64,000 nucleotides of DNA from Blasia pusilla (taxonomy: Eukaryota). Position 1 is the first letter of the stretch. Each line of letters opens with the position of its first letter. Shown piece by piece: positions 2,343-64,000 of the stretch. Below the pieces are notes generated by a model. The model was not told the origin of the DNA and did no database searches. It was given only the letters and a program-made list of their open reading frames with translations. The position numbers and the translations under genes were made by a program. The stretch covers positions 45,570,001-45,634,000 of the forward strand of contig CM114271.1 of the NCBI GenBank assembly GCA_050084515.1, in the 5' to 3' direction.

Positions 2343-2619
2343 ATGGAGACTTGGGAGCCAGATATGGGCCCTAAGTTGACAAGAGGAGAGCGGCGCCAGA
2401 TACATCAGTTCCTGAGGAGTTATAGGAGCTGCTTTGCATTTAGCATGGAGGATTTGGGTACGCTAAAGGGACCGAGGATCCGCATTGAGTTTTCGAGTGA
2501 TACGTTGATCTTCCGACGATCCTACAGGTACACTGATATGGAGAGGGCTCTGATTTAGAGTAGGAGCCAGGCTGAGTTTCAGAGGGTCATGGATAGGATC
2601 TTGGCTGGTTTGGATTTTG
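2343..2619 (+). pseudogene. Reverse transcriptase N-terminal part (internally deleted), cut by the MULE insertion
   Basis: LTRGERRQIHQFLRSYRSCFAFS..IFRRSYRY then AEFQRVMDRILAGLDF; the frame resumes at 12366 as ARCYIDDIVVFS. Confidence 0.85.
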
Positions 2620-3317
2620 GGGGGCTGGTATTCTGGCAGGAGAGAGTAAGAGAGGAGAGGAAGAGAGGAAGAGAGGAGAGTCTCTCTTCAAAAAAAAGGG
2701 CCAAATCCGCCTCCTCTCTTCAAAACTTTTTGACAGATTTGAAATTTTTGTTTGCTTTCAAATTCAGGAAATCTTTAGAAGAGAATAGGTAGTGGTCCAT
2801 ATTTGGCCCTAAAAAAACCTCCTTTTTCCTGGGGGCGAAAAAAAGTAGACATCATAAGACCACTACAAACGTTTTTCCATCACTCTCCATGTGAGCCTAA
2901 GTTTCTTAACATTACCTGTCTTGGTCTACAAAAAGCAGTGCTCATGGGTATTTTTGTTAGAGGACCACCCGGATGCCAACCTCTCTTTTTGCAAGGATTG
3001 TTGCCTGCATCATGGCCTCCCTTGAATTGCCCCATAACCAACTTTCTGTTGGTTCTGAATGGTGTCTGCTCAAGACCAACTTTGTGAAATGTGAACACAT
3101 GAGAGGATAATTGAACCAAAAGATTGTTAGCTGTCTGGAGTAAAGAGGAACTAATGTCCCTTCATTCAGATCGTAAAGCTGAGAGACCGAGAAGCTGCAC
3201 CCCTCCCAACCCGTAAAAAAGCTCACCATAAGAAAGGAAAGATTTTTAGAAGTGATTTTCTTCCACCCTGCACCCACAAAAATCTAACAGGTTGGGAATC
3301 CGAAATGGCAATCTGAC

Positions 3318-4410
3318 AGGTAGTAGGAATCCTGCACATCTTAGACAAGAAAAGAAGCCTACAACTGGTTTGACGAATGTAGGGAACGAGCCAAAAGTTA
3401 AGAAGCCCGCCACAATGCGTCAGAAGTTGGTCATAGGGAAAGAGTCCGATCACTCAAGCAGCCAACCTGTCGGAATCCGACAACTTGCCTGGAAATGGTT
3501 AAAAAGTTGCAGTGGGCAAAAAGAAAAAAGTTGCAACCCATCGGAATCATACGGGTTGCAAAATTGTAATTCTGAGTAGCTAAAAGAACACAATCCACAA
3601 GTCCAAAAAAATATTCCAGCTAACTTTTACAAACACCATTATTGGTTGAAAAAATCTCGTCCTTTATTACCTCCGAAGGAACCTCGGAAATGTACATTTG
3701 ACCTAGTCTCCGATTTCTTCAGCCTCATCATCTACAAATTTACTCCTAACTCTCCTCGGTGACAGTACCAAAGGAATGTCCTGGGATACAAGTGGCTCCT
3801 CTAGCCGATTGTAGACAGGGATCGAAAATGTTGGCGAATTCGAGAGCCTTGGCCCCCCCTAGTTACGCCATAACGGTCCCATGTAACATGATTTGAGTCC
3901 CATCGCCTTCCTCGGCAGTATCCCTTGTACGCTCTGCAATATGACATCCATCCAGTATCAATATGTGCTCTGTCCTTGGTAATACTATTATGGAAATCGC
4001 CAGGTAGTAGGAATCCAACACGTCTGAGAGAAGAAAAGAAGCCTACGCCTGCCTTTACGAGTTGAGGGGAAGGTGCCAAGGGAAGAAGCCCGCCAGACTG
4101 CCTCTTAAGTTGGACCAATAGGGAAAGAGTCTGATCAGGCAACCTGTCGGAATCCGACAGGTTGCCTGGAAGTGGTAAAAAGCTGTTGTCGTCAAAAAGT
4201 GAAACTTGCAAGCAGGAGAAATCCAACGGTTTGCAAAATAGAAGTCCGCGGAGTTCATAGACGATCACATTCGAAAAGACAAAAAATGTTCAGCAAACTT
4301 TTGCAAGCACCACCATCGTTCGAAAAAATCATCTCCTTTATATCATCCGAAAAAAGCTCAGAACTGTACATTTGATCTATTCTATGAAATCTTTTGCCTC
4401 ATCATCAAAT
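3318..4410. repeat. Diverged tandem duplication (period ~680 bp) in the MULE left arm
   Basis: CAGGTAGTAGGAATCC..GAAAAGAAGCCTAC..GAAGCCCGCCA..GGGAAAGAGTC..palindrome..GCCTCATCATC occurs at ~3318-3735 and ~4001-4410; also present in copy 2 (~54630-55780). Confidence 0.75.
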
Positions 4411-4462
4411 AGCTCCCTACTCCAAACGCTGCAGTCAAGCTGGGTCCTTGAGTTCTTTGAAC

Positions 4463-7400
4463 TCACTCATCATCGTCCGAGAGCTCTTGCAAAATTACTT
4501 TCGCCCTTGCCCTCCCGATTTTCGGAATCGTTGGAAGTGACGATGGAGTCACTACCAATGGTGGGTCTGGAACCGGAGCTCTCGGCTTCGGTGGAGAGTT
4601 GTACGCCCCAACGAGCCTTTCATATTCTACCTTTGCCTCCTTGCAAAGGTCAAACAGTTCCTGCCTTCCCTCGAGGCAGAGAATGTTTCTGCCACTCTGC
4701 CAGGCGCCTTTGATACTTGCCCCTGAAAGTCCCACTAAGTCGAACACCAAGTCACCCGGCCTTGAGTAGAGCTCGATGAGCGTTTGCATCAGGGCTGGCG
4801 ACTTTTCCCTTCCTCCCAGAAGTGGGGTGCCGTCTTGCATGTAAATTCCCGGGGGGGAATTGTACAAACTATCTAAGCTGTACCCATCTGAGCATGGATC
4901 CACAGGATCTTGGATCTTGAACACCTGGAAATTGTGCTCAGGCCGAACGAAGCAGTAAACGTAGGTCCATCTGTAAAGAACCACGTTGGAAACAATGTCA
5001 GCAACTTGGCACAATGTGCAACACGTCACCAAAGAAGGCTTGACCCTAGAGAACTTTTTTCAATTACTAACTTTGGAGCAACCTGTCGGAGTCCGACGGG
5101 TTGGTCATGGATGGGTTGGCTGGCCTAGAGCAGCCCATGCTCGGCTGAGAGCAACCCGTCGCTTTCTGACGGGTTGCAGCTTTCCGAAAACACAAGGAAA
5201 AACCAAAAGCAACTGTAACCCGTCTGGTTCCGACGGGTTGCAGGTACACCACGGTTTTCCCTGTGTTTCTAGGAAAGATGCAACCCGTCGGGTTCCGACG
5301 GGTTGCAGGTACACCATGGTTTTCCCTGTGTTTCTGGGAAAGATTCAACCCGTCGGAAACCGACGGGTTGCTCTTAGCCGAGCATGGGCTGCTCTAAGCC
5401 AGCAACCCATCGCCTTCCAACGGGTTGCTCACGGACAAAAACATCGAAGATATACTATCTGAAATTCACACGCATTGAGATTATACTAAAGAATTGAGCC
5501 TTACCCGAATCTGACTCACCGCGGATCGGAGTGGGTACTAGTTTTTTATGATCCAAGATTGCGCCGTCCTCCTCTTTAGCGACCTCTTGACGCACAGGAG
5601 GTTGAAGAGCTCGTCCTCGCTCCCTCCAGTCAACACTAAGAAGCAGCCCCTGTCACTCAGATAGGCGTCTGCAAAGGAGAACAATAGCGCCATTTGGTCA
5701 TAAGAGAGCGGCACATTCCTCTCAGGTACCCCGTCCGACGGATTCTCGCCCCACAGTCGCAACCCCGAGGGCACATCAGCGATCAAGAGATCCACCGCAA
5801 CCTCTTTGATCACTCCATTCACCGTCCAGGAAGCATGCCCGTTTCGTTGGAGCTTCCGTCCCACCGTTGTCAATTTATCAATGGCTGGTGTCGACGCTTG
5901 AGAACTGAAGCTTTTCAGCTCATCCAGTAAAGGAGTGAACTGAAGGAGGACGCTTGTCCGGGTCGTTGTTTGTCTGTGTCTTCCCAAGGATGATGGACTG
6001 TATTCTCCTTGGGACAACCCTGGCACCCCTTGCTTCCGCTTCTCTCGAGTCTGTAGACGGCTTGTCGGGGTCTCTATGACCTCAGACTCTGGTGGGGTTT
6101 TTTCCGCCGAAGACCTAGTCCGACCCTCTCTCCCCGCTCACCCGGACGATTCTGCCTCTGGCCTTGAATCTTCAGCCTCTCTTTGGGAAGACTCGGCCTC
6201 GGAATTTTTCCCTCCCCCCGCCTTGCCTTTGAGACCCGCTGTGGATTTGTCTTTGGCTGTGCGGACCTTTGAAGCCAACTCAGTTGTCTCGTGGGCTTGC
6301 TCTTCCGCATCTCCTCCGAAGAAGTCTTCAAGCTGCACAAAATTGGGGATGTTGTCTTGTCCTGAGGCCACTGCATCATGAAGCACTCGTACATACTTAT
6401 TGGTGATGTCTTCAGAGTCGTTGAAGTCAATCCAAATGGGGCAATTCTCCACCTCCCAATCGGACATGTGCTGCCCCATCTCCATGTCGTACATGGAGAA
6501 TGTCTCTCCATCAGGCGGCGAAGCCCACAATTTCAAGGCTGCCGGTAATTTTCCCCAGGTACATGCATTCTTACAATGGACGAGGTACCTGAAGACCATC
6601 CGTTGGGCAGCTTTTACTCGAACTGAATCGGCCGTTTGCTCCTGTAGATCTCGCTTCTTCTTGCTTGATCCCGTTTGTTCCCCTCGATTTCTTCGTCAAG
6701 CTCTGTCTGAGGGAGGACGCAAACCTTGAACATTGTCTTGAATCCTGGGTTTTTGATTGGCTTGTCCCGGATGTCGTCGAGCCAAACCTCGAAATCTACA
6801 GAACTTTCCAGGTTTGCTTCATCCGGAATGGGCTCTAATCTTTTGAGCTCCGCTTGCAGACCGTCCAGCACGGACTTCCCCATAACCCGCAACGCGTCCC
6901 AGAACGACCATTCGCGTAGCCAGTGGGAGATCATTGGATCGGACACACCTAGAGGATGGTGTGCCACCCTCTTTTGGGCCTCTGTGCCCTCGAGACTGAT
7001 TTTCATCAGTTGGATCCTCCTAAACTCGCTTATGCCGGACAACGCAAACCGATGCACGCGATCCAGGGACACTTTCTCCCCAATCCGACCTTGCGGATCT
7101 TCATCCCTTTTCCGCTGGCGCTTGATAATCGCCTTCAACTCCTTGTAAAAATCCCGACCAAGTTCGGGGTTGAGAATGCTGATGTATCGCTACATCTTGC
7201 TCGCCGTGTATTTCGTTGATGCAAATATTGAAGCTTGGATGAATTTCTCACGCTTAGACCCAGATACTTTCTCCCTCCGCTCCAGCTCCAGTGCAGCGCT
7301 CTTCTTCGCGGCCTGTATCTTCGACCAGCAAAGGATGGTTACAGCTCCATCTTGGGAAATAAACTTATTTGCCCAAGTTTTCTTCTTTATCTGTGCACCC

Positions 7401-7549
7401 TTTGCAAGCATCTGATTTACTAGGGCGTCGCCCAAGAACCCCTTGTACTCTGCCGGTGCGTCGTAAGCACCTTCTTCACCCGATCGCAGTCCTCGATCCA
7501 CTGGTGGGTGACATTCCCCTCCGATACAATCTTGCACATCCAAACTCAA
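4463..7549 (-). pseudogene. MULE cargo gene, 3' part: helical region plus beta-class N4C/N6A DNA methyltransferase-like domain (intron 4971-5504)
   Basis: VDLLIADVPSG (5763-5795, like IDLIxxDPPYG) precedes FADAYLSDRGCFLV, then REKSPALMQTLIELYSRPGDLVFDLVGLSG..GAWQSGRNILCLE (like KP..L..LI..S.PGD.VLDPF.GSG...A...GR...G.E). GT-AG intron with CTGAC branch site. Confidence 0.8.
5077..5430. repeat. Array of GCAACCCGTCGG-n-CCGACGGGTTGC palindromes in the methyltransferase intron
   Basis: Several imperfect copies, e.g. 5280-5306 GCAACCCGTCGGGTTCCGACGGGTTGC. Confidence 0.9.
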
Positions 7550-7730
7550 CCCGTCAGAAAATTTGTAAGTTACATGGGTTCCTGCAACCCGTCGGACTCT
7601 GACGGGTCGTCACAGCTCAAGGTCGGATTCTAGCAACGAGCTAAATGATGCAACCCGTCAGAGTCCGACGGATTGCATTCACATTTGTGAATGCCTGATT
7701 TCAACCCGTCGGACTTCGACGGGTTCCAAC
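7545..7730. repeat. Palindrome cluster at the fused intron/promoter junction of copy 1
   Basis: CAACCCGTCGGACTCTGACGGG, CAACCCGTCAGAGTCCGACGGATTG, CAACCCGTCGGACTTCGACGGGTT. Confidence 0.85.
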
Positions 7731-7967
7731 AAAATGAAGTGTGCTTTGCAACCCACGTCTCTGCTTCCCAAATCCGGTAACACATTGCAATGTGAATGAA
7801 TTGCATGCAACAGTGATCCATTGTGTCAGACAATGTCACCTACCGAACTTCATCTTGTTAGTAAAAATCTGTCAGGAGTATCTGTTTTCCTATTCACTAT
7901 AAATTAAAAATTCTCATTCTGATTCTCTTTCTCATTCTCACCCTCCTCCCGTACGAAATTTTTGGGA

Positions 7968-10900
7968 ATGGATAATTATGTGAAGCTCACTGGTGGCAGT
8001 CATCTGGCGGCCCTTCCTCAATCAGAAATCATTTGACCGCAAGCTCGTGAGTCTTTCATAGCAGTGGATGAAAATTTTCTCTCTGTTCGATTTCTTCTCC
8101 AAATTGAAACCATCTTTGTATTCAAAGATGTTAGGATGGACGGTACGGAGGACATAATAGGTGAGAGAGTCCAGCCAATGACTGCAGACCATAAAGTATG
8201 GAATCTCCTATCTCTAGCAAATGGTCAATACAGAGTTTACGGCCTGCCCCTGAATTTGTCTGTTTCCAAAGTAGACGGTGGAGAATTTCCTAGTGCTCCG
8301 AGCTCTACGTTTGCAACTCCTAGCCCAGTACATCCGGCTTCAACTCCAACTTCACACGCTCGTATCAATGTTGTTCTTCCTGAAGAGATTCCGGATGTTA
8401 TCAACCTCAGTGGATCTGTCGGACACCAACCGGGCCCTCTGTCCGCCTACTCGTTCCTCTTGCGAGTATCAGGCAATAGTTTGCTTTCGTCTGGCCTTGA
8501 AAATGTTCAAGCACATTCTTGTCGATTTAGCCGCCGCCACGTATGATGGTAATTGCATTTTTGAGTTGCCTCCACTTGCTGCTCCTGCTCAAAAGAAAGA
8601 CGGAGGACGCCTGAAGGGTATGGACAGAAAGTCTGATTGTCATCGATGGTGCAGGCTTCAACGGACTAGTGCTTCAATTCCAGATGGTCCTTGGATTGTC
8701 TCCCGCCGCCAATGCGTGGGAGCCTTGGAGTGTAGAAGTCCAGCATGCCCGTATCTAGAGCGCAACGGGCGAGTCAATACGTCGCAGTTCCCCCCCAAGA
8801 ATGCAAAAACTCCATACGAGGTCGGTGCCACCATACTGCCGAGAGGCCATCAATGTCCTCATTGTCAGGCATCGCCCTTCTGCGTTGGAGCGTGACCTGC
8901 ATAGATATTTTTCATTGTCCACGACTTGGGCTCCACGTCAAAGTACACAAGGCTGGCAGTTCATGTTGGCTCCCACACTCATCCTGTGATCGATGCAATT
9001 CAAAGACACATCAAGGAGGATGTGGCGAAGAAAGTTGCCGAGGTCTACAGAAACTCTCCGGGTTCAAAGCCCGGAGTGATCAAGCTCACAACGGCATCAA
9101 AAATTTTTGAACAATTGCTTGGAATCCCTGGACAGGGCGAGAGCACGGCGGCTGAGGAGAAACAACTTTGGGAAAATCTCGCATTTCTTGCTGATCCTGA
9201 ATGCTTCCGGAATGAGCTGTGTCAAATATGAGTTTTGGATGGAAAGACGGCCGAAATGGATGCCATCGCCAGAATCAAGGCCAACTCCAGATTTCCATTC
9301 ATTCAGAGATGGCAGTTCATGGGCCAAGGAGGCGAGGGATCCATGGCCTATGTCTTCAAAATGTCAACCATAGGTCCCTCGAGTGGCCTCAATCTTATAG
9401 ATTGAATGAGGGAAGGGGAAGATCTTTACGGCAGCTGGGTAAGCTTTGATATTTGCTACAGAGTGCTGAACGGATGGTTGACGATGGGTGCTCATGTTTA
9501 TGACCATGTGGAGAAGGGACTCAAAACTATATTTGTCTATGAAGTAAAGGCAGAAGACGTTGGCAGTTTGAAGATGTGCTGGTTACTCTTATTGGAGGTG
9601 GTGAAGGAAAACAAAAGGCCACCTCCGGAAATTTATTGGTTCATGGGGGACATTGCACAACCTGGGTGGATTGCTATCTAGGAAGTGTTCTGGGGTGGAG
9701 AGGTTCAACCGGAGAGGGTAAGGTCGGATGCTTTCCATTGGCAACAGTCTGTGACCCAGTACACAAAATCTTGCATCAAGGAGAATAAGAGGACAGAACA
9801 TGTCACTCTACTCCAACGCTGCAAGGACAGCAAAACCTTGAAGCAGGCCATGGAATGCCAGGAAGAACTTCATGGGTGGTGGAGGAAGCATGCGATTGAG
9901 GGGAAGTACAAAGAGTTGTGCTCTTGGTTGAGTTGGTGGACTGTACTTATGAGAGAATGGGGAAACTTCATGCGGCAGGTGAGTTCACTATTTTGTCTTG
10001 TCAAGCTCACGCTGAGAATTTTTTGTAAAGTTGCAGCTCAAGTTGAGAAGCGTGGGAACTATAGGGATTTCAAATCGAAAAAACCAAACAAGCTCTCGGA
10101 TGCGACGGGTTGCCCGAGTGTGCAACCCGACGGAAACTGATGGGTTTCCCAAGTGTGCAACCCGACAGAAACCGAGGGGTTGCATCCAGAATTTGGTGCA
10201 ACCCGAGTGTGCAAGCCAATGGAAACCGATGGGTTGCAGAGTCATTCATGGGATGCCTCGGCCTTGCAACCTGTCTAAATCCGACGGGTTGTAGTAGGTG
10301 GGTTTAGGGTTGCAACACGTCGGGACCCGACGGGTCGCAGAGTCGTTCATGGGATTCCTTGGCCTTGCAACACGTCTGGTTCAGACAGGTAGCTTATGTC
10401 TTTGAATGCTGAGTTATTTTTGTTCCCTTCTAACATTGTCGTCGTTGCAGGGATTGAACGTTCATGAAAATGCCCTCTACCCCAACACAAGTGGAGCAGA
10501 AAGTGTTCATTCCTCCTGGAGGTCATCACAAGCATGCCAACGAATTTCACTTGTGGAGGCATGCCAACAAGTCCAGGCAAGAGCAATGCTACAGTCTGCA
10601 ACATCCCATATCTTCCTCACAAAAGGCATAACAAAAGGAAGGGGGCCGTCGATCTATGAGCTCTATGTCAGGGCGGTTGTGAGATCTGGTGATGAAAAAA
10701 ATGTATGTGGAAGCCTTCAACCGGTGCGTAGCTGGAACTCCCCTCGAGCAAGACGTACACATTGGTGGGGATATTCATGGGCGGGTTTCAAGATGTCCCA
10801 TACAGATGGTGGTAGAGCAGTCCGAGCGAGACTCGTAGAGACCAGATAAGTATCTTGACTTCAGGCAGGTGAAGAGGCAGCATTGAGGAACGAATCGGGT

Positions 10901-14694: not shown

Positions 14695-14698
14695 GCGT

Positions 14699-40127: not shown

Positions 40128-40889
40128 AACTAGCTGAGTATCCTAGATTGCAAGGATTTACAATTAGCTTTTTATTACATTTCACATGTGTTCATAACTC
40201 TTAACACAACCTAATTGGATTGAAATGGAGAAAATATCTAGGCATTGAATTGTAGGGTTAATGGATTGGATTAAGGATAGTAGAGTATTACTCCCATTTC
40301 AAAATTACCAAGATGCCCTATCCTAGGGGAAAAAATTATGACCATGGTTGAATTGGTTCAATAGATAAAGTAGCTCTATCTTTTTTAGGAATTATTACTC
40401 TTTCAGCCCAATAGATCAATACCTTACGAATGCCATCTTGAGTTTCCATGTCACACTTAGTTTTCACCATAAGGAAATTGATATATCTAGTCATGGACCC
40501 TTTGGTTTTAATGACCATAATCTTTTAGTTGTGCACCATTTTTTTCTTTGCTTTATGATTTATCCAAGTTTGTTGAAGAGCATCAAAGCAAGAGTATTAA
40601 GACACCTTACTAATGACAAAGGATTAAATTGATAGGGGAATTGGTGATGGGATTCTAGATCTATAGTGCAAAGATTATCCTTAGAAAGGTGTCGTGATTT
40701 TAAGTTCGTCTTATGTCTCAGACAGCCCACGATATGGTGTGGTTCTTGAATTTAGCTGTTCCGGTCATGAATCAACTGCAAGATGTCCTCCACCTGGACG
40801 ACACAACGCTGGTGGACAAGTATTTACAAGGCTTACATGACCTCAACTGTCGGGCTTAGGCTTCGTCCAACCATGAAGTACAGTGGAAA

Positions 40890-43039: not shown

Positions 43040-45401
43040 ATGGATAGGGTAAACACAAAGTTGCGGAGCAGACCAAAGCGGGGCGTTCACCGAGATCGAC
43101 GTACTAGCATGCCTCGTGAAGACTCCACGCCCATTCTGCGAAGTGCAGCAATGCCTATGGTCAAGCTGTCCCCAGAGCTGGTCGAAGCAATGGAAGAGCG
43201 ATCTTTGGCGACTTTCTTTCAATCAAATTGGACATTGACATCATGAGAAATCCTCGGGGAGCTTCGTTCCTCAACGGTAGCAGCCAAGTTTCGAAGAAAG
43301 GGTCTTTGATATCGAGCTCAGCCCCAACAATGGACATCGGATGATTAGCGAGCCACTTATATGCTCCCGGCTGCTCCAGAGTATGAGTACGATACTGAGG
43401 CCCTGGTGAAACACGAAGATTTGTTGGCACTCGGCCGTGTAACGTCTGATCGTCTGGGCAGGAATGGTTATAAGGCTACGTCGCTATCTCCACCATTGTT
43501 TGGACAGTTTTGTAAGCATTTGATGACGTTATTTTATCCCGCTCGATCTTACTACCTAATAAATAAGCTCGTCAGGATGTGCTATATCCTTTGGAATTAG
43601 CACCTGGACCCCGAAGCACCGGGAGTCAACTTCGCTTCCTTTGTCGACGAGCACGTACGAGAAATGCTGGAGGCACTTCATCCAAGCACAAAGTCATTCT
43701 TATCTCCTTTTTTAATCCATCTATATATTCATAAGCAGGAATTAACGGCAGACGAAGCGCTCGATTGGTCGCAAGTCACTCCCGTCCGCTTACCAAGAAA
43801 GAGCGGAGCGGTCACTAGTGGGAGCCGCGAAGCCACACCGCCACGCAAAGCAGCCCTAAAGCAACATCCGCATACTTCGGCTTCAGGCAAAGTTGAGGAA
43901 TTCACCGAACTGCCGAGACCGAAGCGCGGCAGGGTCAATTTCAAAACACCCTCGGAACTAGAACCTGCTACTCAAGAGGACTCCGATGAGACGCCCCATA
44001 CTAGCAATCACCGTCCTGCACTTCGTCTCATGTCTTAGACAGCCAACGATATGGTGTGGTTCCTGCATTTAGTTGTTCCGGTCATGAATCAACTTCAACA
44101 CGTTCTCCACCTGGACGACACAACGACGGTGGACGAGTATTTACAAGGCCTAGATGACCTCAACTGTAGGGCCCAAGCTTCGTCCAACAACGAAGTACAG
44201 CGGAAAGTGGCGGAAACAACTCTTCACCTACGGGATCAAGAACTCGAAGACACGAAAACCACGCTTCGCAAAGTTCAAAGTGACTTAGTCCAGAATCAGT
44301 TCAAAGCACGGAACGCGCGCCAATGGGAGAGCTTGGCGATTAACCTAGAGTGTGGGGCTGATCAGTTAGCTTCACAGGTCAAGGAAGCTTCGCAACTCAT
44401 TAAACAATATCGACACCAGATACATCGTGTTCTGAACGAATTCAAGAAATTGGCCACCCAACATGCTGAATCTTCGAAATTGCTTCAAGAACATCAAGAA
44501 ACAAACAAAGACTTACTAGCGCAGTGGTCAGAGGTTACAGGGAGGATCGTTGTCTTGGAGGCACAGCAGAAACTGCTTAACGAGGTGCAGTTAGACCCTG
44601 AAGATGTCAAAGAGTTAATTGAGGAAGCAGCCAAGAGCTTCGAACAACAAATGAATGAAGAGATCGACTATATCAACAAACATTGGAAGCGCCAATTCGA
44701 CAATCATACAAAGTCTCTTCCAGAAGTTGTGCCCACTCTTTCGATTACTCTTGAAGACTTACCATTATTTAATCCATCTGATGTCTTAGTCCAGAATGAA
44801 GTACTGGGGAGTAAATTATATTGGATTCTCAACATCCACTCCTCTGAGCACCATTTATTTGATCAGCCCCCTTGTATGAGGAGAAGCCTAGATCGATGGT
44901 TCCGACTTAGACGTCGAAGGAGTCATAGTAATATGGCGAGGTGGTTTCGGAGTAAGCGTTACTAGGTTTATCTAACCTATATTGCATCGGGTGGGGGCAC
45001 CTGATGCAATATAGGTTAGATATAGGCAAATTTTTCTATTAATAGAAACGAAGAAAAATAGGTAAAAACCTAGTTTTCCCGAGTAGTCAAATAGTCGGGA
45101 GCCGCAGCGGTAGCGCATTCTCGTATGTCGAGTTATCTCCCAGTTCAGGTTCCATCGAAGCTCTTCTGTGAGCGCACGGACGGACTAGGCCACTTTGTAT
45201 CTCTAAGTTTTATAAAGATTTTAGTGATTTCGTCACTTTCTGTTTTCTCACAAATTAGTTGTTAATAAGTCGCGAGAAAGAATGCGCAATCATACCCCTA
45301 ACATTATCAACAAACCTTCTACTATTCATGGTCGTTTTGCGCCTACACATGAATTTAATACTTTAGACGATACTTTTATGGAGTTAGGAGACACATCATG
45401 A
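43040..45401 (+). pseudogene. Long accessory ORF in the retroelement 3' region (globular N-part plus coiled coil), with stops and an insertion
   Basis: Same-frame ORF pieces 43040-43246, 43361-43600, 43664-44038, 44051-44818, resuming after 45257; TATA-like CTATATAAG near 43002. Confidence 0.6.
44819..45252. mobile_element. 434-bp insertion (probable small solo LTR), TSD AATTA
   Basis: Absent from the paralogous unit (GTAAATTAGTTGTT near 41494); AATTA at 44814-44818 and 45253-45257; ends TCTCACA. Confidence 0.75.
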
Positions 45402-53586: not shown

Positions 53587-53991
53587 TGGAGATACTAAAG
53601 GATAGCCTCAAGAGGCCGAGTATGACCTGCTGAGGCCATGGATAACTTATGAGAGCTGGTTTTCCCTTTGTTTTGGCTCATTTGGTGCCATATTGAGGAA
53701 ATAAATATTTCGGGTAAGTTACCATTTTTTTTAGTTGACTTTCCACTTTGGAAAGTGGCCCTTGACCAACTAGAGTACGTCAAGAGCTAAGGAGATGACC
53801 TGCAAGCATAGCTTAATGCGGAGAGGGCTTGGGAGAGGGAAGGGTGTATGCCTCCAAGAGAGAAGGCTTGAGATCTCATTCTCTCTTTGTTTAACCTCTT
53901 GGCATGAGGCGGCAGAGCTATGGTCCTTGCCCTGTGTGTGCAACCCGCCTCTCATTAGGAGAATGGGTTTGGTTTGACATGAGAGAGAGTG
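53587..53991 (+). repeat. LTR piece of the same family as 16236-16880, interrupted by MULE copy 2
   Basis: Starts TGGAGATA; collinear with ~16445-16821 (TTGACTTTCCACTTTGG, CCTCTTGGCATGAGGCGGC, GGGTTTGGTTTGACA..GAGAGAGTG). Confidence 0.85.
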
Positions 53992-56900
53992 GGGGGCTGG
54001 TATTCTGGCAGGAGAGAGTAAGAGAGGAGAGGAAGAGAGGAAGAGAGGAGAGTCTCTCTTAAAAAAAAAGGGCCAAATCCGCCTCTTCTCTTCAAAACTT
54101 TTTGACATATTTGAAATTTTTGTTTGCTTTCAAATTCAAGAAATATTTAGAAGAGAGTATTTAGTGGTCCACATTTGGCCCTAAAAAACCTCCTCTTTCC
54201 TGGGGGCGAGAAAAAAGGAGACATCATAAGACCACTACAAACATTTTTCCATCACTCTCCATGTGAGCCTAAGTTTCTTAACATTCCCTGTCTCGGTCAA
54301 CAAAAAGCAGTGCCCTTGGTATTTTTGTTGGAGGACCACCCAGATGCCAACCTCTCTTTTTGCAGGGATTGTTGCCTGCATCATGGCCTCCCCTAAATTT
54401 CCCCATAATTACCCCATAACCATTCATAACTTGGTTATGAATGGTGTCTGCTCAAGACCAACTTTGTGAAATGTGAACACATCAGATCCTAAGGCTGAGA
54501 AACCGAGAAGCTGCACCCCTCCCAACCCGTAAGAAAGCTCACCATAAGAAAGGAAAGATTTTTAGAAGTGATTTTCTTCCACCCTGCACCCACGACGATC
54601 TAACAGGTTGGGAATCCGAAATGGCAATCCGACAGGTAGTAGGAATCCTGCACATCTTAGACAAGAAAAGAAGCCTACAACTGGTTTGACGAATGTAGGG
54701 GAACGAGCCAAAAGTTAAGAAGCCCGCCACAATGCATCAGAAGTTGGTCTCACCGGGATAGAGTCCGATCACTCAAGCAGTCAACCAGTCGGAATCCGAC
54801 AGCTTGCTTGGAAATGGTTAAAAAGTTGCAGTGGGAAAAAAGCAAAAATTTGCAACCCGTCGGAATCATACGGGTTGCAGAATTGTAATTCTGAGTAGCT
54901 AAAAGAACACAATCCACAAGTCCAAAAAAATATTCCAGCAAACTTTTACAAACACCATTATGGGTTGAAAAAATCTCGTCCTTTATTACCTCCGAAGGAA
55001 CCTTAGAAATGTACATTTGACCTAGTCTATGATTTCTTCAGCCTCATCATCTACAAATTTACTCCTAACTCTCCTCGGTGACAGTACCAAAGGAATGTCC
55101 TGGGATACAAGTGGCTCCCCAGGCCGATTGTAGACGGGGATCGAAAATGTTGGCGAATTCGAGAGCCTTGGGCCCCCCCTAGGTACACCATAACGGTCCC
55201 ATGTAACCTGATTTGAGTCCCACCGCCTTCCTCGACAGTATACCTTGTACGCTCTGCAATGTGACACCCATCCACTATCAATATGTGCTCTGTCCCCGGT
55301 AATACCATTATGGCAATCGCACAGGTAGTAGGAATCCAACACGTCTGAGAGAAGAAAAGAAGCCTACGCCTGCCTTTACGAGTTGAGGGGAAAGTGCCAA
55401 GGGAAGAAGCCCGCCAGACTGCCTCTTAAGTTGGACCAACAGGGAAAGAGTCCAATCAAGCAACTTGTCGGAATCCGACAGGTTGCCTGGAAGTGGTAAA
55501 AAGGGTGCAGTGGTCAAAAAGTGAAAAGTTGCAAGCAAGAGAAATCCGACGGGTTGCAGTGGTCATAAAGTGAAAAGTTGCAAGCAGGAGAAATCCGACG
55601 GGTTGCAAAATAGAAGTCCACGGAGTACATAGACGATCACATTCGAAAAGACAAAAAATGTTCAGCAAACTTTTACAAGCACCACCATCGCTCGAAAAAA
55701 TCTTCTGCTTTATATCATCCGAAAAAGCTCTGAATCAGACATTTGATCTATTCTATGAAATCTTTTGCCTCATCATCAAAAAACTCCCTACTCCAAACGC
55801 TGCAGTCAAGCTGGGTCATTGAGTTCTTTGAACTCACTCGTCATCGTCCGAGAGCTCTTGCAAAATTACTTTTGGCCTTGCCCTCCCGATTTTTGGAATC
55901 GTTGGAAGTGACGATGGAATCACTACCAAGGGTGGGTGGAACCGAGCTCTCCGCGGTGGAGAGTTGTACGCCCAACGAGCCTTTCGTGATTTCGCCTTTG
56001 CCTCCTTGCAAAGGTCAAACGATTCGCCTTCCCTCGAGGCGTAGAATGTTCTGCCACTCTGCCAGCGCCTTTGATACTTGCCCTGAAAGTCCCACTAAGT
56101 CGAACACCAAGTCACCCGGCCTTGAGCAGAGCTCGATGAGCGTTTGCATCAGGGCTGGCGACTTTTCCCTTCCTCCCAGAAGTGGGGTACTGTCTTGCAT
56201 ATAAATTCCCGGGGGGAAATTGTACAAACTATCTAAGTTGTATCCATCTTAGCATGGATCCACAGGATCCTGGATCTTGAACACCTGGAAATTGTGCTCG
56301 GGCCGAACGAAGCAGTACACGTAGGAGTGGTCCATCTGTAAATAAGCACGTTGGAAACAATGTCAAGAACTAAAGAAGTCGGCTTTGAGAACATTTTCAT
56401 TCATCGACTTTGGATCAACTGTCGAGTCCGACGGGTTGTTTTGTCCGGACCAACCCGCCGCCTTCCGACGGGTTGGGTGACTAAGACAACCCGTCGGGCT
56501 CCGTTGTTTTTGTCCGTGAGCAACCCATCGGAAGTCGACGGGTTGCTGGCCTAGAGCAGCCCATGCTCGCCTGAGAGCAACCCGTCGCTATCAGACGGGT
56601 TGCAGCTTTCCGGAAACAGAGGGAAAAACCAAAAGCAACTGCAACCGTCGGGTTCCGACGGGTTGTAGGTACACCACGGTTTTCCCTGTGTATGTGGGAA
56701 AGATGCAACCCGTCGGTTTCATCTTTCCCATCACGGACAAAAAAAACGGAGATTGACACTCATTATACTCACTCAACGGAGATGAACACTCATTATACAC
56801 ATCATTAAAATATAATTGAGATTATAGTACAGGAATTGAGCCTTACCCGAATCTGACTCGTCGCGGATCGGAGTGGGTACTCGTTTTTTATGATCCACGA

Positions 56901-58920
56901 TTGCGCCGTCCTCCACTTTAGCAACCTCTTGACGCACTCGAGGTTGAAGAGCTCGTCCTCGCTCCCTCCAGGCAACACCAAGAAGCAACCCCTGTCACTC
57001 AGATAGGCGTCTGCAAAGGAGAACAATAGCGCAATCTGGTCATAAGAGAGCGGCACATTCCACTCAGGTACCTCGTCCGACGGATTCTCGCCCCAAAGTC
57101 GTAACCTCGAGGGCAGATCACCGATCAAGAGATCCACCGCAACCTCTTCGACCACTCCATTCACCGCCCAGCGCGTGCGTGTTCGTTTGCTGGAGCTTCC
57201 GCCCAGCGTTGTCAATTTATCGATGGTGGTGTCGACGCTTGAGAATCAAGCTCTTGACTCATCCAAAGAAAGGAGTGAATCAAGGAGGACGCTTGTCCGG
57301 GTCGTTGTTTGTCTGTGTCTTTCCAAGGATGATGGACTGTATTCTCCTTGGGACAACCCTGGCACCTCTCGCTTTCGCTTCTCCCGAGTCTGCGGACGGT
57401 TTGTCGGGGTCTCTATGACCTCAGACTCTGGTGGGGTTGTTTTCGCCAGGACCTGGTCCGACCCTCTCTCCCCGCCGCCGACGATTCCGCCTCGGCCTTG
57501 AATCTTCAGCCTCTCTTTGGGAAGACTCGGCCTCTCGAAGTTTTCCTTCCTCGCCTTGCCTTTGAGACCCATTTGTGGATTTGTCTTTGGTGTGGGGACC
57601 TTGGAAGCCAACTCCGCTGTCTCGTGGGCCTGCTCTTTGCATCTCCTCCGAAGAAGTCTTCAGCCGCACTAAATTGGGGATGTTGTCTTGTCCTCGAGGC
57701 CCCTTTGCATCATGAAGCACTCGTAAATCCTTATCGGTGATGTCTTGAGGGTCGTTGAAGTCGAGCCAAATGGGGCAATTCTCCACCTCCCAATCGGACA
57801 TATGCTGCCCCATCTCCACGTCGTGCACATGGAGAATGTCTCGCATCCGGCGAAGCCCACAATTTCAAGGGTGCCGATAATTTTCCCCACGCACTGCATT
57901 CTTACATTGGATGAGGTACTTGAAGACCATCCGTTGGGCGCTTTTAGTCGAACAGTAATCGGCCGTCATTGTCCTCTGAGATCTCGCTTCTTCTTCGCTT
58001 GATCCCGTTTGTTCCCCTCTACTTCTTCGTCAAGCTCGCCGAGGAGGACGCAAACCTTGAACGTTGTCTTGAATCCTGGTTTTTGGTTGGCTTATCCCGG
58101 ATGTCGCCGAGCCAAATCTCAAATCTCGTAACTTTCAAGGTTTGCTTCATCGGGATGGGCTCTATTCTTCGAGCTCCGCTTGCAGGACCGCCCAAAGACG
58201 GACTTCCCGATAACCCGCAACGCGCCCCGTAACGACCATTTGCGGAGCGGTGGGAGATCATCGATCGGACACACCCAGAGGATGGTGTGCCGCCCTCTTC
58301 GGGCCTCTGTGCCCTCGAGACCGATTTTCATCGGTCGGATCCTCCTAAACTCGCTTATGCCGGATAACGCAAAACCGATGCACGCGATCCAGGGACACTT
58401 TCTCCCCAATCCGACCATGCAGATCTTCATCCCTTTTCGGGCGCTTGATAATCGCCTTGGCTCCTTGTAGAACTCCGGACCAAGTTTGGGGTTGAGAATC
58501 TTGATGTATCGCTGCATCTTGCTCGCCGTGTATTTCGTTCTTGTCGCAGATAGTGCGGTTCGATGAATTTCAGCAAGACCGAGACGCAGATACCTTCTCC
58601 CTCCGCTCCGGCTCGGTCAGGCGCTCTTCTTGCGGCCTGTATCTTCGACCAAAGCAAAGGATGGTTAATTTGCGCATCTTGGGAAATAAACTTATTTGCC
58701 CAAGTTTTCTTTTTAATCTGAGCACCCTTTGCAAGCATCAGATTGACAAGGGCATCGCCCAAGAACCCCCTGTAGTCTCCCAGAAGCGTCGTAAGCACCT
58801 TCCTCACCCGATTGCAGTCCTGGATCCAGTGGTGGGTGACATTCCCCTCCGATACAATCCTGCACATCCAAACTCAACCCGTCAGAAAATTTGTAAGTTA
58901 CATGGGTTCCTGCAACCCGT

Positions 58921-60194
58921 TGTCGTATAGTAAAATCAACCAGTGTGTAAACTCCTTCGTCATTAAGTGTTAGATAGAGTTTCATTAGTATTAAGTAAAT
59001 TGGCTTAGAAAAAGGAGATTCTTATGTTTAAACCTCTTTATGGTGCCTATTTTATGCGGGCCCAACTTTAGGAAAAGGAGGTAATAAATAAAAGATGACT
59101 TTATAAAAGTAAAGTAGTTGCTTTAATGAAAAGCAAAAGTAGTCTTGGTTGGTGGCTAGGTTAGTTGGGGTAATTTGGAAAATATCATGTGGGTAAAAGA
59201 GGATATTTTGGAAGAGATAAGAGGAAATCTACTTGTGTCAAAATGTGATTGGCTAAGCCTTGGGAGGAAGCCATGTGGCACAAGATAAGATAAGCTCTAT
59301 TTCGTACTCTTGTGGATCCCTTGTGAGTATATAAAGAGGAGGGACCTTCAAGGGTTCATCACCTTCTATTCCACATCTTGAGTCTCTCGTGTCTCTCTTG
59401 AGTGTATGGCTTTGGGATTGCTTGCTCTTCCAATGAGAGTGGATCACCCCTCTTGGGATAGTAACTTGACTTTGGTCTATTCTTTGAGAGATTTCTAGAG
59501 TGTGGTGTGTGTGTGTGGGGATGAGAGGTTTGTCACCGTAGAGGAGTTTAGTCATACTAAAATAGTGGAAGTTTTGGCTTGTTACTTCCCCAATGAGAGT
59601 GGATTACCCCTCTTGGGAGAATAACTCCGCCAAAAACCTATTCTTGAGGAGAGTAGAGAATGTGTGTCAAGCATGGATAGGGGTGGAGCACGAGCTGTGC
59701 CCGACTTTCCTTTCCTCAATCCTTACCATGTCAAGGTACTCTTTGTAGATAGGCACTGGTTCACTCGCTATTTAGTTTATCACTTTGGGGAGGCGTTCAT
59801 GAACCAGGTCATGCAATCTCCAACTCCGGTGATTCTTCTTATTGTCACATATGGAAGGACATGGGATTGTACTTTGTATGTCCTTATATAGCGATCCATG
59901 GATGTCAATAGGCCTGCTCAAGTAGGGTTTAACACTAGTTGTGCTATCTTCCTCGTGTACAAGCGTAAAATAGTTTATAGGGATTTTATAGTTAGGAATT
60001 TTGGGGTCCGATGTTACGAAGAAGTGATCGCCTAAGCACTTCCATTTGTGATACCTGTCGTGAGAGAATGGAGAGTGTACATCATAATTTTGTATTGAAA
60101 AAGGAGAACTTATTAGAGAGTTCACCTTGCATCAACCGCATCTACCGCAGCTAGAAGGCCCGCCCTTGCTCGAAGAAAGACTCTCGACACGACA
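58921..60194. mobile_element. Solo LTR (1274 bp), copy B, 4-bp TSD CCGT, inserted in a MULE palindrome
   Basis: TGTCGT..ACGACA; CCGT at 58917-58920 and 60195-60198; removal restores GCAACCCGTCGGACTCCGACGGG. Confidence 0.9.
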
Positions 60195-60800
60195 CCGTCG
60201 GACTCCGACGGGTCGTCACAGCTCAAGGTCGGATTCTAGCAACGAGCTAAATGATGCAACCCGTCGGAGTCCGACGGATTGCATTCAGATTTGCTAATGC
60301 CTGGTTTCAACCCATCGGACTCCGACGGGTTGTGCAACTGAACATACTAATGTGAACATAGCAATTTGACGCGAAATTTGGGGAAACAACTTCCGAATGC
60401 AACCCGTCGGACTCGGAGGGGTTGATTTCGGCCAAAAACAGTTTTGAGGCAAGCAACCCGTCGGACTCCGACGGGTTGCTTTGGGCAAAAAATATTCTAA
60501 ACCTGCGGTCAGTCGAACAACTCGTCGGAGTTCGACGAGTTGCATTCTTCAAAAAACATCCTGACAAGGCGGTGAGACGAGCAACCCGTCGGACTCTGAC
60601 GGTTTGCTTTGGGCCAAAAACTAATTAAATCTGTGGTCAATCGAACAACTCGTCGGAGTCCGACGAGTTGCATTCTTAAAAAAACATCCGAAAAAGTGTC
60701 GAGTCGAGCAACCCGTCGGAGTCCGACGAGTTGCTTTCGGCAAAAAAAAACCTAACCCATTCATCAATCGAGCAACTCGTCGGAGTCCGACGAGTTGCGT
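60195..60800. repeat. Regular palindrome array (~64-bp period) in the intron after the ParB-like exon
   Basis: Units near 60256, 60307, 60399, 60453, 60517, 60581, 60645, 60708, 60772; 60451-60481 is a perfect inverted repeat around one central base. Confidence 0.93.
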
Positions 60801-62377
60801 AAAGTGTTAAAGATACTCACGGTTCATGGCATGCATTGCCATCTCCACCGTCGCCATGTGATGAAGGAATGGGTGAAGGACCACTGCCTTCAGAAATGTG
60901 CCTCCAATGAGTTGGGCCGCTCCTCCGCAAACTTGGTCCACGCCATGAACCTGTGATTTCCATCCCAGATGAAGAAATGCAGATTCCTCATCCAGCTGAA
61001 TTCCGCGAACTCAACTTGCCTTCTGAAATCCTGGTCTCGCATCCTCTAGAATGTGTCAAGCTTTTCCAAGTCCTTCTCCGTAACCAGAGCTTGGGTTCCA
61101 TGCTCGTCGTAAGGCTGAACATAGAAGGGAGGAAAGCTGTCCACGTAGGATGCTGTCGCCGCCGATTGTTTAAGCTTCGCGATGTCCTCGTCGGACTGAA
61201 TTTTATGGACGTATTCCATTGTCCGCAATCGGCAGAGTGGAATCCTCGGGGCGTTGTGGCCTCCATGAGTGCCATCTGCTTTACCACCTGTCAGAACCGG
61301 GACAAGATGAATAAGCTACACTGAATTCCCAATGAATTGCAATTCACATAATTCAAAAAACCCAGATCCTCTCTTACCCGCTCGAAAATGGGGTTGGTTT
61401 CTTGACCAGCTAACTTGTCTGAGACAGAAGCTGGAAAATCGACTGGGAACTCGTCGATCCGATAGAGGTCGATGTCCTCCGCCGGGCTTGGAGTCGAGAA
61501 TGACCGCTCTCCGGCTTCTTCGCCATGTCCACCATCTCCACGCTGGCGGTCCTCATGACCTCGTCGTCATCGATTTCAACTTCTGGCGCTTCCACTATGT
61601 TGATTGTGTCCCCGGACTTCATGGGGGACATTTCCCGCATCTCAACACTTTCGGTTGGACGGGCAGGGCTATCTTCAATGGCTATCGCTTTTTCCCTCCT
61701 CGCTTTAGCCAATTCTGCTCTCCTCACCGACGCGTCCAGACGCTTCTTTTCTCTCTTTTCGTCGGCGATCCTTTTCTTCAAGGCCTGCAACGTCTCAGCC
61801 TCTGCGTTCTGTTTATCGAGCGCCTCTTGAACACGTCTTGCAAGAAGCACTTGGTTGTGCATCTCCGCTTCCCTTTCCCGCTCCTCGATTTCCTGCTGCC
61901 TAATTTCATTTGCCAAACGAGGCCGGAGATCTTGACGCAGAGTCCTAATGGACTTGAGTGAAGCTCCTGACTTGTTGGCTTGTGATTTTTTCCTCATCAT
62001 TTTTTCCGGAAATGCCTCCATCTATGTCCACGACGAATCCCTTGATCAGTCGCCTTGCTGATGTCGAGATGGGTAGCTTGAATTGCCTTGATGGGTAGCT
62101 CGAATCGTCTCGCGATCGTTCAGTTGAACCGTCTCGCTGTCGTTCGGTCAAACCGTCTCGCTGTCGTTCCCTCCTATCGACTCGCGATGTGTCTCCGTGT
62201 GAAACGCCCTTCAGATCGATCATCGCGCGGGAGAGTGAGGAATGAAGATCGCGAAATGAGAAACCGAAATGAGCGATTTTCGCCCTATTCATACTTTTCT
62301 AGCCGTTTGGTGACCGTTGGGTCCCGGTCCTTCGACGGCAACGCGTCGGAGGTTATGGAAGTCCAGAGGTGAAAAAT

Positions 62378-62975
62378 GGCAACCCGTCGGAGTCCGACAG
62401 TTGCGCGCGCCTCCGCCATCCTAGGTACGCCGCCACGCGCGCGCGAAAGCAACCCGTCGAGACCGACGGGTTGAGCGCCGCCGTCCTTTTCGAAAAGAAC
62501 GCGAGGTACCGTGCAACCCGTCGGAGACCGACATGTTGCGCGCCTCCGCCCGTGTTTGGGACGGAACGGACGTACCAGGAAATCCGTCGGAGACCGCTGC
62601 GGTTGCACGCCCTCGTCAAGGGTTAAGAACGCAGCTTCCGTGCAAGTCGCCGAGTCCGGCCTGGTCGCACACTTCATGTAAGCACCACAAGGCGAGGCCC
62701 TTGCGCAACTCGTTGGAAGGCGACGGGTTGCACGCCTCGCCGTCTTTGGGCAAATAGGTGAGGCACCCGCGGAACTCGTTGGGAACAGACGGTTTGCACG
62801 CCTCCGGCATCTTCGGGCAAGAAGGAGCGGTATCCGAGCAACTCGTCGGAGAGCGACGGGTTGCTTGCTTCGTCAATGTTTGGTAGAAGCATGCAACCCG
62901 TCCGAAGCCAACAGGTTGTAGGCTTCAGTTAGCTTCGGGTAATTTTGGAGTTACCAGGACTCCGACGGGTTCCAA
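62378..62975. promoter_or_regulatory. CpG-rich palindrome array in the head-to-head intergenic region (putative bidirectional promoter)
   Basis: Multiple GCAACCCGTCGGAG..CGACGGGTTGC variants between the - strand cargo gene (~62292) and the transposase ATG (63194). Function is inferred. Confidence 0.6.
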
Positions 62976-63193
62976 GTGTGATTTGCAACCCTCTACTTCC
63001 CAAATCCAGTAACATATTGCAATAGAATTGAATGTGTTACAGAATTGGATCCATTGTGTCAGACAATGTCACCCACCAAATTCATCTTGTCAGTAAAAAT
63101 CTGTCAGGAGTATCTATTTTCCTATTCACTATAAATTAAAAATTCTCATTCTCATTCTCATTCTCAGTCTCCTCCCGTTGGAATCTTCTTGGA

Positions 63194-64000
63194 ATGGATA
63201 ATTATGTTAAGCTCACTTGTGGTAGTCATCTGGCGGCCCTTCCTCAATCAGAAATCATTCGACCCCAAGCTCGTGAGTCTTTCATAGCAAAGTGGATGAA
63301 AATTTTTCATCTGCTCGATTTCTTCTCCAATTGGAACCATCTTTGTATCCAAAGATATTAGGTGGACGATACGGAAGACATAATAGGTGAGACGGTCCAG
63401 CCAAAGTGACCTCGCATCGTAAAGTATGGAATCTCCTACCTCTAGCAAATGGTCAATACAGAGTTTACGGCCTGCCCCTGAATTCGTCTGTTTCCCAAGT
63501 AGACGGTCTAGAATTTCCTAGTGCTCCGAGCTCTATGTTTGCAACTCCAAGCTCTGCAGATCCGGCTTCCACTCCAACTTTGCACGCTCGTAACAATGTT
63601 GTTCTTCCTGAAGAGATTCCGGATGTTATCAACCTCAGTGGATCCGCTCGGACACCAATTGGGCCCTCTGTCGCCTACTGTTCCTCTTGCGAGTATTAGG
63701 CAATAGTTTGCTTTGCCTCTCGGCCTTGAAAATGTTCAAGCACATTCTTGTCGATTTAGCCGCCGCCCACGTACGATGGTAATTGCATTTTTGAGTTGCC
63801 TCCACTTGCTGCTCCTGCTCAAAAGAAGGATGGAGGATGCTTGAAGGGTATGGACAGAAAGTCTGATTGTCATCGATGGTGCAGGCTTCAACGGACTAGT
63901 GCTTCCATTCCATATGGTCCTTGGATTGTCTCCCTCCGCCAATGCCTGGGAGCCTTGGAGTGTAGAAGTCCAGCATGCCCGTATCTAGAGCGCAACGGGC
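63194..64000 (+). pseudogene. MULE transposase copy 2, 5' part (frameshifted, cut by window end)
   Basis: Homologous to 7968-8770; MDNYVKLT start; CLGALECRSPACPYLERNG. Confidence 0.88.

Follow-up and report, generated by a model that had tools for sequence, protein, structure and literature searches.

A decayed ParB-fold exon in Blasia pusilla, probably from a methylase-like fusion gene on a repeated and probably mobile element

A stretch of 64,000 nucleotides from Blasia pusilla (NCBI GenBank assembly GCA_050084515.1, contig CM114271.1, positions 45,570,001 to 45,634,000 of the forward strand), here called the window and numbered from its first letter, carries on its minus strand a broken exon that very probably belonged to a gene for a ParB-fold/methylase-like fusion protein on a repeated, probably mobile element. 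The unit bearing this gene occurs twice in the window (copy 1 and copy 2), and the exon, which had been pointed out from the letters alone as a ParB/Srx-like exon missed by the list of open reading frames (ORFs), lies in copy 2. It is the second exon of a multi-exon minus-strand gene of about 7 kb, running from about 62.0 to 55.0 kb (Table 1). We base this reading on homology, the fold of the encoded domain, the fused architecture, a single splice junction, decay in both copies and a palindrome confined to the element. By comparison of described architectures, the gene appears to belong, as a land-plant representative, to a class noted until now in algae.

The exon had been predicted as a peptide that runs on past the stop of an ORF and, after a 1-nt shift, into a second frame, and both features are present at 60821-61287. 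The first frame (frame A, 60890-61045) translates to RMRDQDFRRQVEFAEFSWMRNLHFFIWDGNHRFMAWTKFAEERPNSLEAHF (in a longer quotation, ...RQVEFAEFSWMRNLHFFIWDGNHRFMAWTKFAEERPNSLEAHF) and is the same-frame continuation of ORF 61046-61315, with one TAG (61048-61046) between them. The second frame (frame B, 60807-61010) translates to ...LKAVVLHPFLHHMATVEMAMHAMNREYL (longer quotation, ...LKAVVLHPFLHHMATVEMAMHAMN) and joins the first at 60895-60893. Homologs run uninterrupted across both breaks, for example as ...WHPRVRCVILIPPV..YKQIEVAMHNLN, and because they read through both we regard the TAG and the frameshift as decay of the window copy rather than as features of the gene. Landmarks of the exon on the minus strand are PRIPLCRL (61249-61226), DGNHR (60964-60950) and MHAMN (60836-60822). 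Its 5' acceptor (61288/61287) was read off the sequence alone, with no RNA joint listed there. By inspection of the sequence, the GTGAGT donor announced for position 60820 occupies 60820-60815, and the two TGCAG acceptors expected near 58910 and 58860 are likewise present (58914-58910 and 58864-58860). RNA reads splice at 58860 and not at 58910, and the latter was rejected as an acceptor.

The window peptide, read through the stop with the TAG as X (query P0001), was compared by phmmer with a set of 1.84 billion representative proteins, which returned 74 relatives at E<=1e-3, of which 18 passed E<=1e-10 and the best had an E value of 8.3e-17 and 33% identity; judged by these alignments, the similarity is far beyond chance. 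Among 20 relatives that were looked up, eight belong to the liverwort Riccia sorocarpa (hypothetical proteins), two to the fern Adiantum nelumboides and ten to environmental or Logan records, and thus all named relatives in this group come from one liverwort and one fern. Motifs conserved in the family include IPLCRL..VR, GY...FYV, WD..W....F, VWDGNHR..AW and AMH.lN. The original prediction had staked itself on conservation of DGNHR across family copies, and the motif is indeed conserved: in 52 homologs its positions are occupied by D in 46 (and E in six), G in 48, N in all 52, H in 51 and R in 46.

The fold was examined on an AlphaFold2 model of the N-terminal domain of the best homolog, P0002, computed from a 56-sequence alignment (mean predicted local distance difference test score, pLDDT, 83.8). 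Foldseek against the PDB placed ParB, Noc, sulfiredoxin, SerK, KorB and PadC in its top rows (best E 7e-3, probability 1.0), and VIA-align superposed the model on Caulobacter ParB (7bm8_A) with a Z score of 9.4 and a root-mean-square deviation (rmsd) of 2.2 Å over 95 residues; 18 chains reached Z>=8, those listed being ParB, Noc or KorB. A search independent of Foldseek, covering 48,161 representative PDB chains, found 13 chains at Z>=2, and 12 of the 13 belong to the ParB/Srx superfamily (KorB 8.1, PadC 7.4, pNOB8 ParB 6.7, sulfiredoxin 6.5, SerK 5.6), including Atu1540, SspE, BrxU and 9jfl, which we take to be ParB-like. A viral structure library returned only ParB-like phage proteins, none of them near (best E 2.2e-3). 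The predicted pattern strand-DGxHR-helix-strand-helix-N recurs in the model: strand 160-164 ends at D164, helix 166-178 opens with N166-H-R, and next come a strand and another helix, closed by N, with a helical insert of about 45 residues before the motif. DGNHR (residues 164-168 of P0002) lies at the central strand/helix junction, in the manner of a G-x-x-R-type phosphate-binding motif, and by its position we match it to ParB box II, presumably its counterpart. Canonical ParB proteins carry an arginine-rich phosphate-binding motif of the GERRxR type. On the strength of these models, we consider the ParB/Srx fold assignment supported.

That the exon forms part of one fusion protein, as had been suggested, is borne out by two full-length Riccia proteins, P0078 (1207 amino acids, aa) and P0011 (1191 aa), which carry both domains: the ParB-fold domain at about residues 170-330 (with DGNHR in P0078 and DGNHQ in P0011) and an N6_N4_Mtase-like domain at the C-terminus. 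In tblastn comparisons, the Riccia proteins are collinear with the minus strand of the window from 61.27 kb to 56.07 kb. For copy 2, aa 174-283 correspond to 61249-60926, aa 435-537 to 58511-58206, aa 938-1046 to 57143-56820 and aa 1057-1142 to 56329-56066, and aa 264-340 of P0009, directly after its MHNLN, correspond to 58858-58625; for copy 1, aa 348-579, 596-1014 and 1048-1175 fall within 7453-4586. The intact gene product is thus predicted to have about 1,200 aa, with a disordered N-terminus, the ParB/Srx-fold domain, a long helical middle and a beta-class amino-methyltransferase-like domain. Pfam matched nothing in the middle region (aa ~340-940 of P0078), and no homology was found for the putative first exon.

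Three RNA-seq runs with the same species label were mapped to 55000-62100 at a likeness of at least 88%. Seven reads (2+3+2 in the three runs) join 58859 to 60822, which provides the link between 60821 and about 58860 that had been proposed as a check by cDNA, and their first mate always lies on the plus strand, which fits minus-strand RNA in a stranded library of the usual kind. The segment skipped by this joint ends in AG (58861-60). Between the two sides of the joint the reads have two letters, against a single letter (60821) ahead of the GT in the window, and with two letters the phase closes as ..N-T-I-V-S... The splice phase could not be fixed earlier because of this missing letter, and since the reads do not match the window at this point, they stem from other, better-preserved copies. 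Other family members are therefore transcribed and spliced. RNA depth across the ParB exon is low (0.3-5.6). At the 3' end of the gene, another RNA joint (55295-55825) has 11 reads and non-canonical ends, and at 55825, 56081 and 55175 many reads end loosely, which together indicate that expressed copies have a 3' exon structure different from that of the window copy. Internal duplications are also seen near the 3' exons in both copies (3305-3732 resembling 3990-4406, and 54621-55072 resembling 55310-55801).

Table 1. Positions of the gene, its lesions and the surrounding repeat features in the window
Feature	Positions	Strand	Evidence
Pseudogenised exon for the ParB/Srx-fold domain	60821..61287	-	Sequence, homology
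In-frame TAG within the ParB exon	61046..61048	-	Read-through peptide X90; homologs carry a residue there
Frameshift, ...SLEAHF / LKAVVLHPF...	60893..60895	-	Homologs continuous here
Intron with palindrome array and solo long terminal repeat (LTR)	58860..60820	-	GT 60820-19, AG 58861-60, RNA joint
Next coding exon, ..IVSEGNVTHHWIQD.. at 58858-58817	58430..58859	-	Matches Riccia residues after MHNLN
First half of methylase-like domain, with motif-IV-like G-D-L-P-S at 57122-57108	56820..57143	-	
Second half of methylase-like domain, with SAM-binding motif I FDLVGLSG at 56104-56081	56066..56329	-	N6_N4_Mtase E 0.002, 18.6 bits
C-terminal exon, with acidic tail FVDDEAEE (55057-55034) common to the Riccia proteins	55025..55363	-	
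Putative first exon, low-complexity, coiled-coil, ATG at 62021, frame breaks	61379..62021	-	Inference only
Copy 2 of the repeated unit, running off the window end	53991..64000	-	
Copy 1 of the repeated unit	2619..8770	-	
Tandem palindrome array, 9 units	60257..60797	.	Spacings 51, 92, 54, 64, 64, 64, 63, 64 bp
Two more palindrome arrays, upstream of the gene	62449..62864	.	66- and 67-bp periods
Solo LTR within one palindrome unit	58921..60194	.	TG..CA ends, 4-bp target duplication CCGT

The C-terminal part of the family resembles DNA amino-methyltransferases. PHROG DNA methyltransferase families match it at E values from 8.7e-7 to 4.3e-6, the family profile matches DpnA/M1.HpyAVI (E 0.0011, aligned to DpnA residues 171-229), M.RsrI and CcrM, and a precomputed PF01555 match exists for 4 of 26 Riccia paralogs. 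The S-adenosylmethionine (SAM)-binding motif I and the acidic motif II are kept, as GDIVIDFAGGWGAT...CIVAE in Riccia and GDLVFDLVGLSG...LCLEG in the window, and lie C-terminal to motif IV. Foldseek with an AlphaFold model of this domain gave 79 matches at E<=1e-3, with CcrM (1.1e-6), M1.HpyAVI, M.BceJIV and MboIIA first; the model is poor (pLDDT 49.9), and for that reason these matches count as weak support. A phage search with the methylase part found tblastn similarity over just 46 residues, to a stand-alone Lactobacillus phage methylase. Public records name members of the family 'hypothetical protein' or mislabel them: several Riccia paralogs of the methylase part (P0076, P0078, P0079 and others) bear the UniRef label 'Trimethylguanosine synthase', which is probably an automatic mis-annotation, as the sole family signal detected in their sequences is that of N6_N4 DNA methylases.

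The two copies of the unit are 87-91% identical, lie 51 kb apart and have unrelated flanks, and both begin at the same sharp left end, GGGGGGCTGGTATTCTGGCAGG. Copy 1 has no counterpart of the region ~60200-62950, which includes the ParB exon, and shows in its place 118 bp with three palindromes (7593-7710); this gap probably arose by deletion between repeat arrays. The copies differ to a similar extent at all three codon positions (for example 16/22/24), which indicates neutral decay. Both window copies are dead, copy 2 having the stop, the frameshift, the missing donor letter and an intronic solo LTR, and the window copy is thus without a function of its own. In Riccia there are at least 26 paralog clusters, with dozens of fragmentary paralogs on many large contigs; metagenome contigs searched with P0016 showed no related locus. 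We conclude that the unit is a repeated element and, as far as can be inferred, probably a mobile one. DIRS-type retrotransposons carry a methylase domain, and an origin of the methylase from such an element was considered and rejected: the unit has neither a reverse transcriptase (RT) nor a tyrosine recombinase, and the RT at 12302-13096 is a separate Ty3-type fragment.

A 25-bp perfect palindrome, CAACYCGTCGGA-N-TCCGACGRGTTG, occurs 30 times at up to 3 mismatches where none is expected, with 12 occurrences in copy 1 and its plus-strand neighbour region, 18 in copy 2 and none elsewhere in the 64 kb. Its arrays, with a period of 64-67 bp, lie upstream of the gene, in the intron following the ParB exon and in an intron within the methylase region, and Tandem Repeats Finder reports a period of 64/128 over 60445-60798. 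The solo LTR inserted into one palindrome unit measures 1274 bp and is 97% identical to 13412-14698, and a contig of run X1 (the kind of run is not on record) shows the empty site, with the joint 58916->60195. The LTR at 13412-14698 itself lies downstream of an ORF for Ty3-type RT/ribonuclease H (RNase H) at 12302-13096. Transcription of the solo LTR is strong (depth 20-230) and runs opposite to that of the ParB-methylase gene, and RNA reads join its end to its start (60194->58921/58922, with 3-18 extra letters).

Among well-studied proteins, the clamps ParB, Noc and KorB are folded like the N-terminal domain (Z 8.0-9.4, rmsd 2.1-3.2 Å, 87-100 residues), and the arrayed palindromic sites of the element are reminiscent of parS. 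Unlike these clamps, the window family has DGNHR in place of the arginine-rich box, a helical insert of about 45 residues between strands, introns, a methylase fusion and a eukaryotic host, and it is not known to have a ParA partner. Sulfiredoxin also shares the fold (Z 5.2-6.5) but is a single-domain enzyme of about 100 aa that scores below ParB, Noc and KorB and shows no sequence match. The methylase-like domain agrees with the beta-class N6-adenine methyltransferases CcrM, M1.HpyAVI/DpnA, M.RsrI and M.MboIIA, its best profile and fold matches, in the motif order IV...X-I-II and in the SAM motif, and departs from them in having D-[LMV]-[PS]-[ST] for DPPY and in the scores of the window copies, which fall under the Pfam cut-off.

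Closer parallels come from mobile DNA, as described in the available parts of the respective sources. The Sola1-1_Ec32 transposon of Ectocarpus is described as encoding a 1104-aa protein with ParB-like and N4/N6 methyltransferase domains, opposite to the transposase (PMC12477816). It resembles the window family in joining an N-terminal ParB-like domain and a C-terminal amino-methyltransferase in one protein of about 1,100-1,200 aa, in the opposite strands of gene and neighbour, in the location of the gene on a repeated element and in having a function that is only predicted; it differs in that the window family comes from land plants, has no transposase identified beside the gene and is represented in the window by a pseudogene. 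In the Plavaka elements of red algae, treated in a preprint on Bostrychia, PAG2 combines a PF01555 methylase with SET and PAG3 a ParB-like domain with a 2-oxoglutarate (2OG) oxygenase, tandem inverted-repeat arrays adjoin the PAG3 gene, and binding and modification of the protein's own element are what its authors propose (bioRxiv 10.1101/2025.02.11.637652). As in our family, the ParB-like domain there was found by remote methods only (by HHpred to 7BNR_B, E 0.29), the methylase is of the PF01555 type and arrays of inverted repeats accompany the ParB-like gene; in Plavaka, however, the domains reside in two proteins with other partners, whereas the window family has them fused and carries its arrays in introns as well as upstream. 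A 2025 survey notes that ParB + N6_N4 methylase fusions are enriched in phages and prophages and that sulfiredoxin is the common eukaryotic representative (PMC12704722). These fusions of a ParB-type cytidine triphosphatase (CTPase) with an N6_N4 methylase share with our family the two-domain combination on mobile DNA but are prokaryotic and were found via PF02195, which misses the window family. ParB-linked adenine methylase clades in algae and chytrids are described in a 2015 review (PMC4738411), the available text of which makes no mention of a land-plant ParB-methylase, and the literature searched contained no report of a ParB-methylase fusion for bryophytes or ferns.

A number of results weigh against the reading of the exon as part of a ParB-fold/methylase-like gene on a mobile element. 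Regarding the N-terminal domain, a profile hidden Markov model search against ParBc had been suggested, and it failed to recover the domain: window peptides gave no Pfam match at E<=10, Pfam ParBc (PF02195) matched 0 of 56 family members at E<=1, and by these profiles the family falls outside Pfam ParBc. Sequence searches of the PDB with the window peptide and with the family profile did not retrieve ParB either. The fold model is that of P0002, which is 33% identical to the window, and not that of the window's own broken peptide, and Foldseek with it gave 0 matches at E<=1e-3. The proposal of a ParB N-terminal domain hence holds for the fold (Z 9.4 to Caulobacter ParB) and not for the ParBc profile. 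As to the fusion, P0078 and P0011 are gene predictions, and the RNA evidence comprises one junction in seven reads from other copies. In the methylase-like domain, window pieces reach 22.9 and 18.6 bits with Pfam N6_N4_Mtase (PF01555), under the gathering cut-off of 26.7 bits (as do Riccia P0078, P0076 and P0079 with 23.7, 26.2 and 24.8 bits), and the matches span motifs X-I-II only. Motif IV reads D-[LMV]-[PS]-[ST] in 14 of 14 alignment rows covering the position, and never (D/N/S)PP(Y/F/W); in the window it is GDLPS (57122-57108) in copy 2 and ADVPS (5780-5766) in copy 1. Because it is without the PP-aromatic core, the domain may be inactive. As to the element, terminal inverted repeats (TIRs), a target duplication and a recognisable transposase for the unit were not found in the window, and its 22-nt left terminus has no inverted copy there, the sole inverted match to the left end being a GA-rich low-complexity stretch (12308-12345) where the Ty3-type ORF begins. 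The algal proteins, finally, are likened to the window family by their architecture as given in the available descriptions, and not by sequence. A similar GA-rich stretch lies directly inside the left end of each copy (2643-2680 and 54013-54052) and is too simple to be called a TIR.

How such a protein would act can be sketched from its fold, its architecture and the published suggestion for the algal proteins. It would recognise its own element, plausibly via the palindrome arrays as parS-like sites, the ParB domain would bind a nucleoside triphosphate (NTP) to clamp or oligomerise on DNA, and the protein would then methylate element DNA, as N6-methyladenine (6mA) or N4-methylcytosine (4mC), or mark it otherwise. 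That the protein binds NTP and DNA and transfers methyl groups, and that the unit is mobile, are predictions, and we put forward the sequence of palindrome binding, NTP-gated clamping and self-methylation only tentatively. A bolder version, that land plants, at least those of bryophyte and fern grade, host an active transposon lineage with its own epigenetic writer, an NTP-gated ParB-type clamp that would load on the parS-like palindrome arrays in its own introns and flanks and spread a fused, non-canonical amino-methyltransferase depositing 6mA or 4mC over the element, seems to us distinctly unlikely; if true, it would amount to a transposon-encoded, self-targeted DNA-marking system in embryophytes that does not use 5-methylcytosine (5mC).

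The step of this scheme most readily disputed is the methylation itself. It is possible, if doubtful, that the architecture is as described and that the C-terminal domain is no DNA methyltransferase, being either a SAM-/DNA-binding pseudo-enzyme or an enzyme acting on RNA or protein, in which case the ParB-like domain would provide the main activity through NTP-dependent DNA clamping, partition-like tethering or anti-silencing. This possibility stays alive because motif IV is non-canonical throughout, and the sub-threshold scores in the window pieces and the three scanned Riccia proteins, the restriction of matches to motifs X-I-II and the UniRef label of some paralogs fit it as well. Conservation of the SAM motif I and the acidic motif speaks against it, as do the best structural and profile matches, which are DNA N6-adenine methyltransferases, and the non-canonical motif IV is itself kept between liverwort and window copies at ~25-30% identity, arguing for a retained function. 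It is rather unlikely that the ParB-like domain is instead a nuclease or a small-molecule kinase-like ATP enzyme, akin to sulfiredoxin, SerK or ParB-like nucleases, and not an NTP-gated clamp, so that the gene would be a selfish module of the restriction-modification or addiction type. The CTP-binding clamps ParB, Noc and KorB have the highest Z scores (8.0-9.4), whereas Srx, SerK and SbnI reach 4.5-6.5; these differences are small, though, and a common fold does not show function. Moreover, the motif is of the DGxHR type, as in DGQHR, DndB and DUF1015, and not GERRxR, and the family is not known to have a helix-turn-helix or C-terminal dimerisation domain. Searches of the N-terminal domain with Pfam, NCBIfam and PHROGs also gave only weak signals of these same three families: among 56 members, Pfam matched DUF1015 in four (best E 0.0056) and DndB in one, and TIGR03187 (DGQHR) matched homolog P0003 with an E value of 0.0011 at 18.8 bits, the cut-off being 58.85.

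An explanation that dispenses with mobility, namely a domesticated host gene family spread by segmental duplication, would agree with the lack of identified TIRs, target duplications and transposase and with members that are transcribed and correctly spliced. We nevertheless hold it to be very improbable, given two copies separated by 51 kb whose left ends are sharp and identical and whose flanks are unrelated, the neutral decay (one copy a deletion derivative, the other with an LTR insertion), the dozens of fragmentary Riccia paralogs on many large contigs, the element-specific palindrome array and the precedent of algal transposons. The thought that non-coding DNA resembles a ParB-like domain by chance, which the twice-broken frame and the missing Pfam match might invite, carries next to no weight: 74 homologs, conserved motifs, a fold that matches ParB-like proteins only and RNA spliced at the exon end led us to reject a chance ORF.

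Reading the exon as the decayed remnant of a fusion gene carried by a repeated element matters for several reasons. Eukaryotic ParB-fold proteins are generally equated with sulfiredoxin, as far as the available text of the survey conveys (PMC12704722), and earlier mentions of transposon ParB-methyltransferase passenger genes have been brief and limited to brown, red and green algae. The family described here is a sizeable land-plant family with an N-terminal domain invisible to Pfam, and it is transcribed and spliced; the element-specific palindrome array offers a concrete candidate binding site. The finding is also relevant to the dispute over DNA methylation other than 5mC in plants.

Next to the gene, the plus-strand ORFs within 8037-11950 and 63391-64000 diverge from its 5' end and are conserved between the copies. 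They are rich in cysteine (CRSPACPYLERNG...CPHCQ), with a SWIM-like C..C...CKH near 11700-11800, and may represent the transposase of the element, a tentative Cys-rich, SWIM-like reading based on motifs only. ORFs in 8037-11950 gave no Pfam match at E<=10 and no homolog in word-index searches, and ORF 10970-11623 gave no usable match in the ESM Atlas. For ORF 9682-10137, the ESM Atlas yielded a lead of 0.87 to a cluster with a Mutator-like element (MULE) in 19% of its members. The window as a whole is eukaryotic and plant-like in content. Besides the Ty3-type RT/RNase H, it holds a PHD finger, a DUF659 ORF and, judged by eye, several kinase-like or copia-like ORFs. Two plus-strand ORFs about 3 kb apart (40860-41642 and 44039-44962) are paralogous, long and coiled-coil-like and have no Pfam match. 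The minus-strand ORF 22808-23698 matches DUF659 (E 6e-31), which is typical of hAT-type transposase-related genes, and the plus-strand ORF 15451-16020, just downstream of the LTR at 13412-14698, encodes the PHD finger (E 9e-8).

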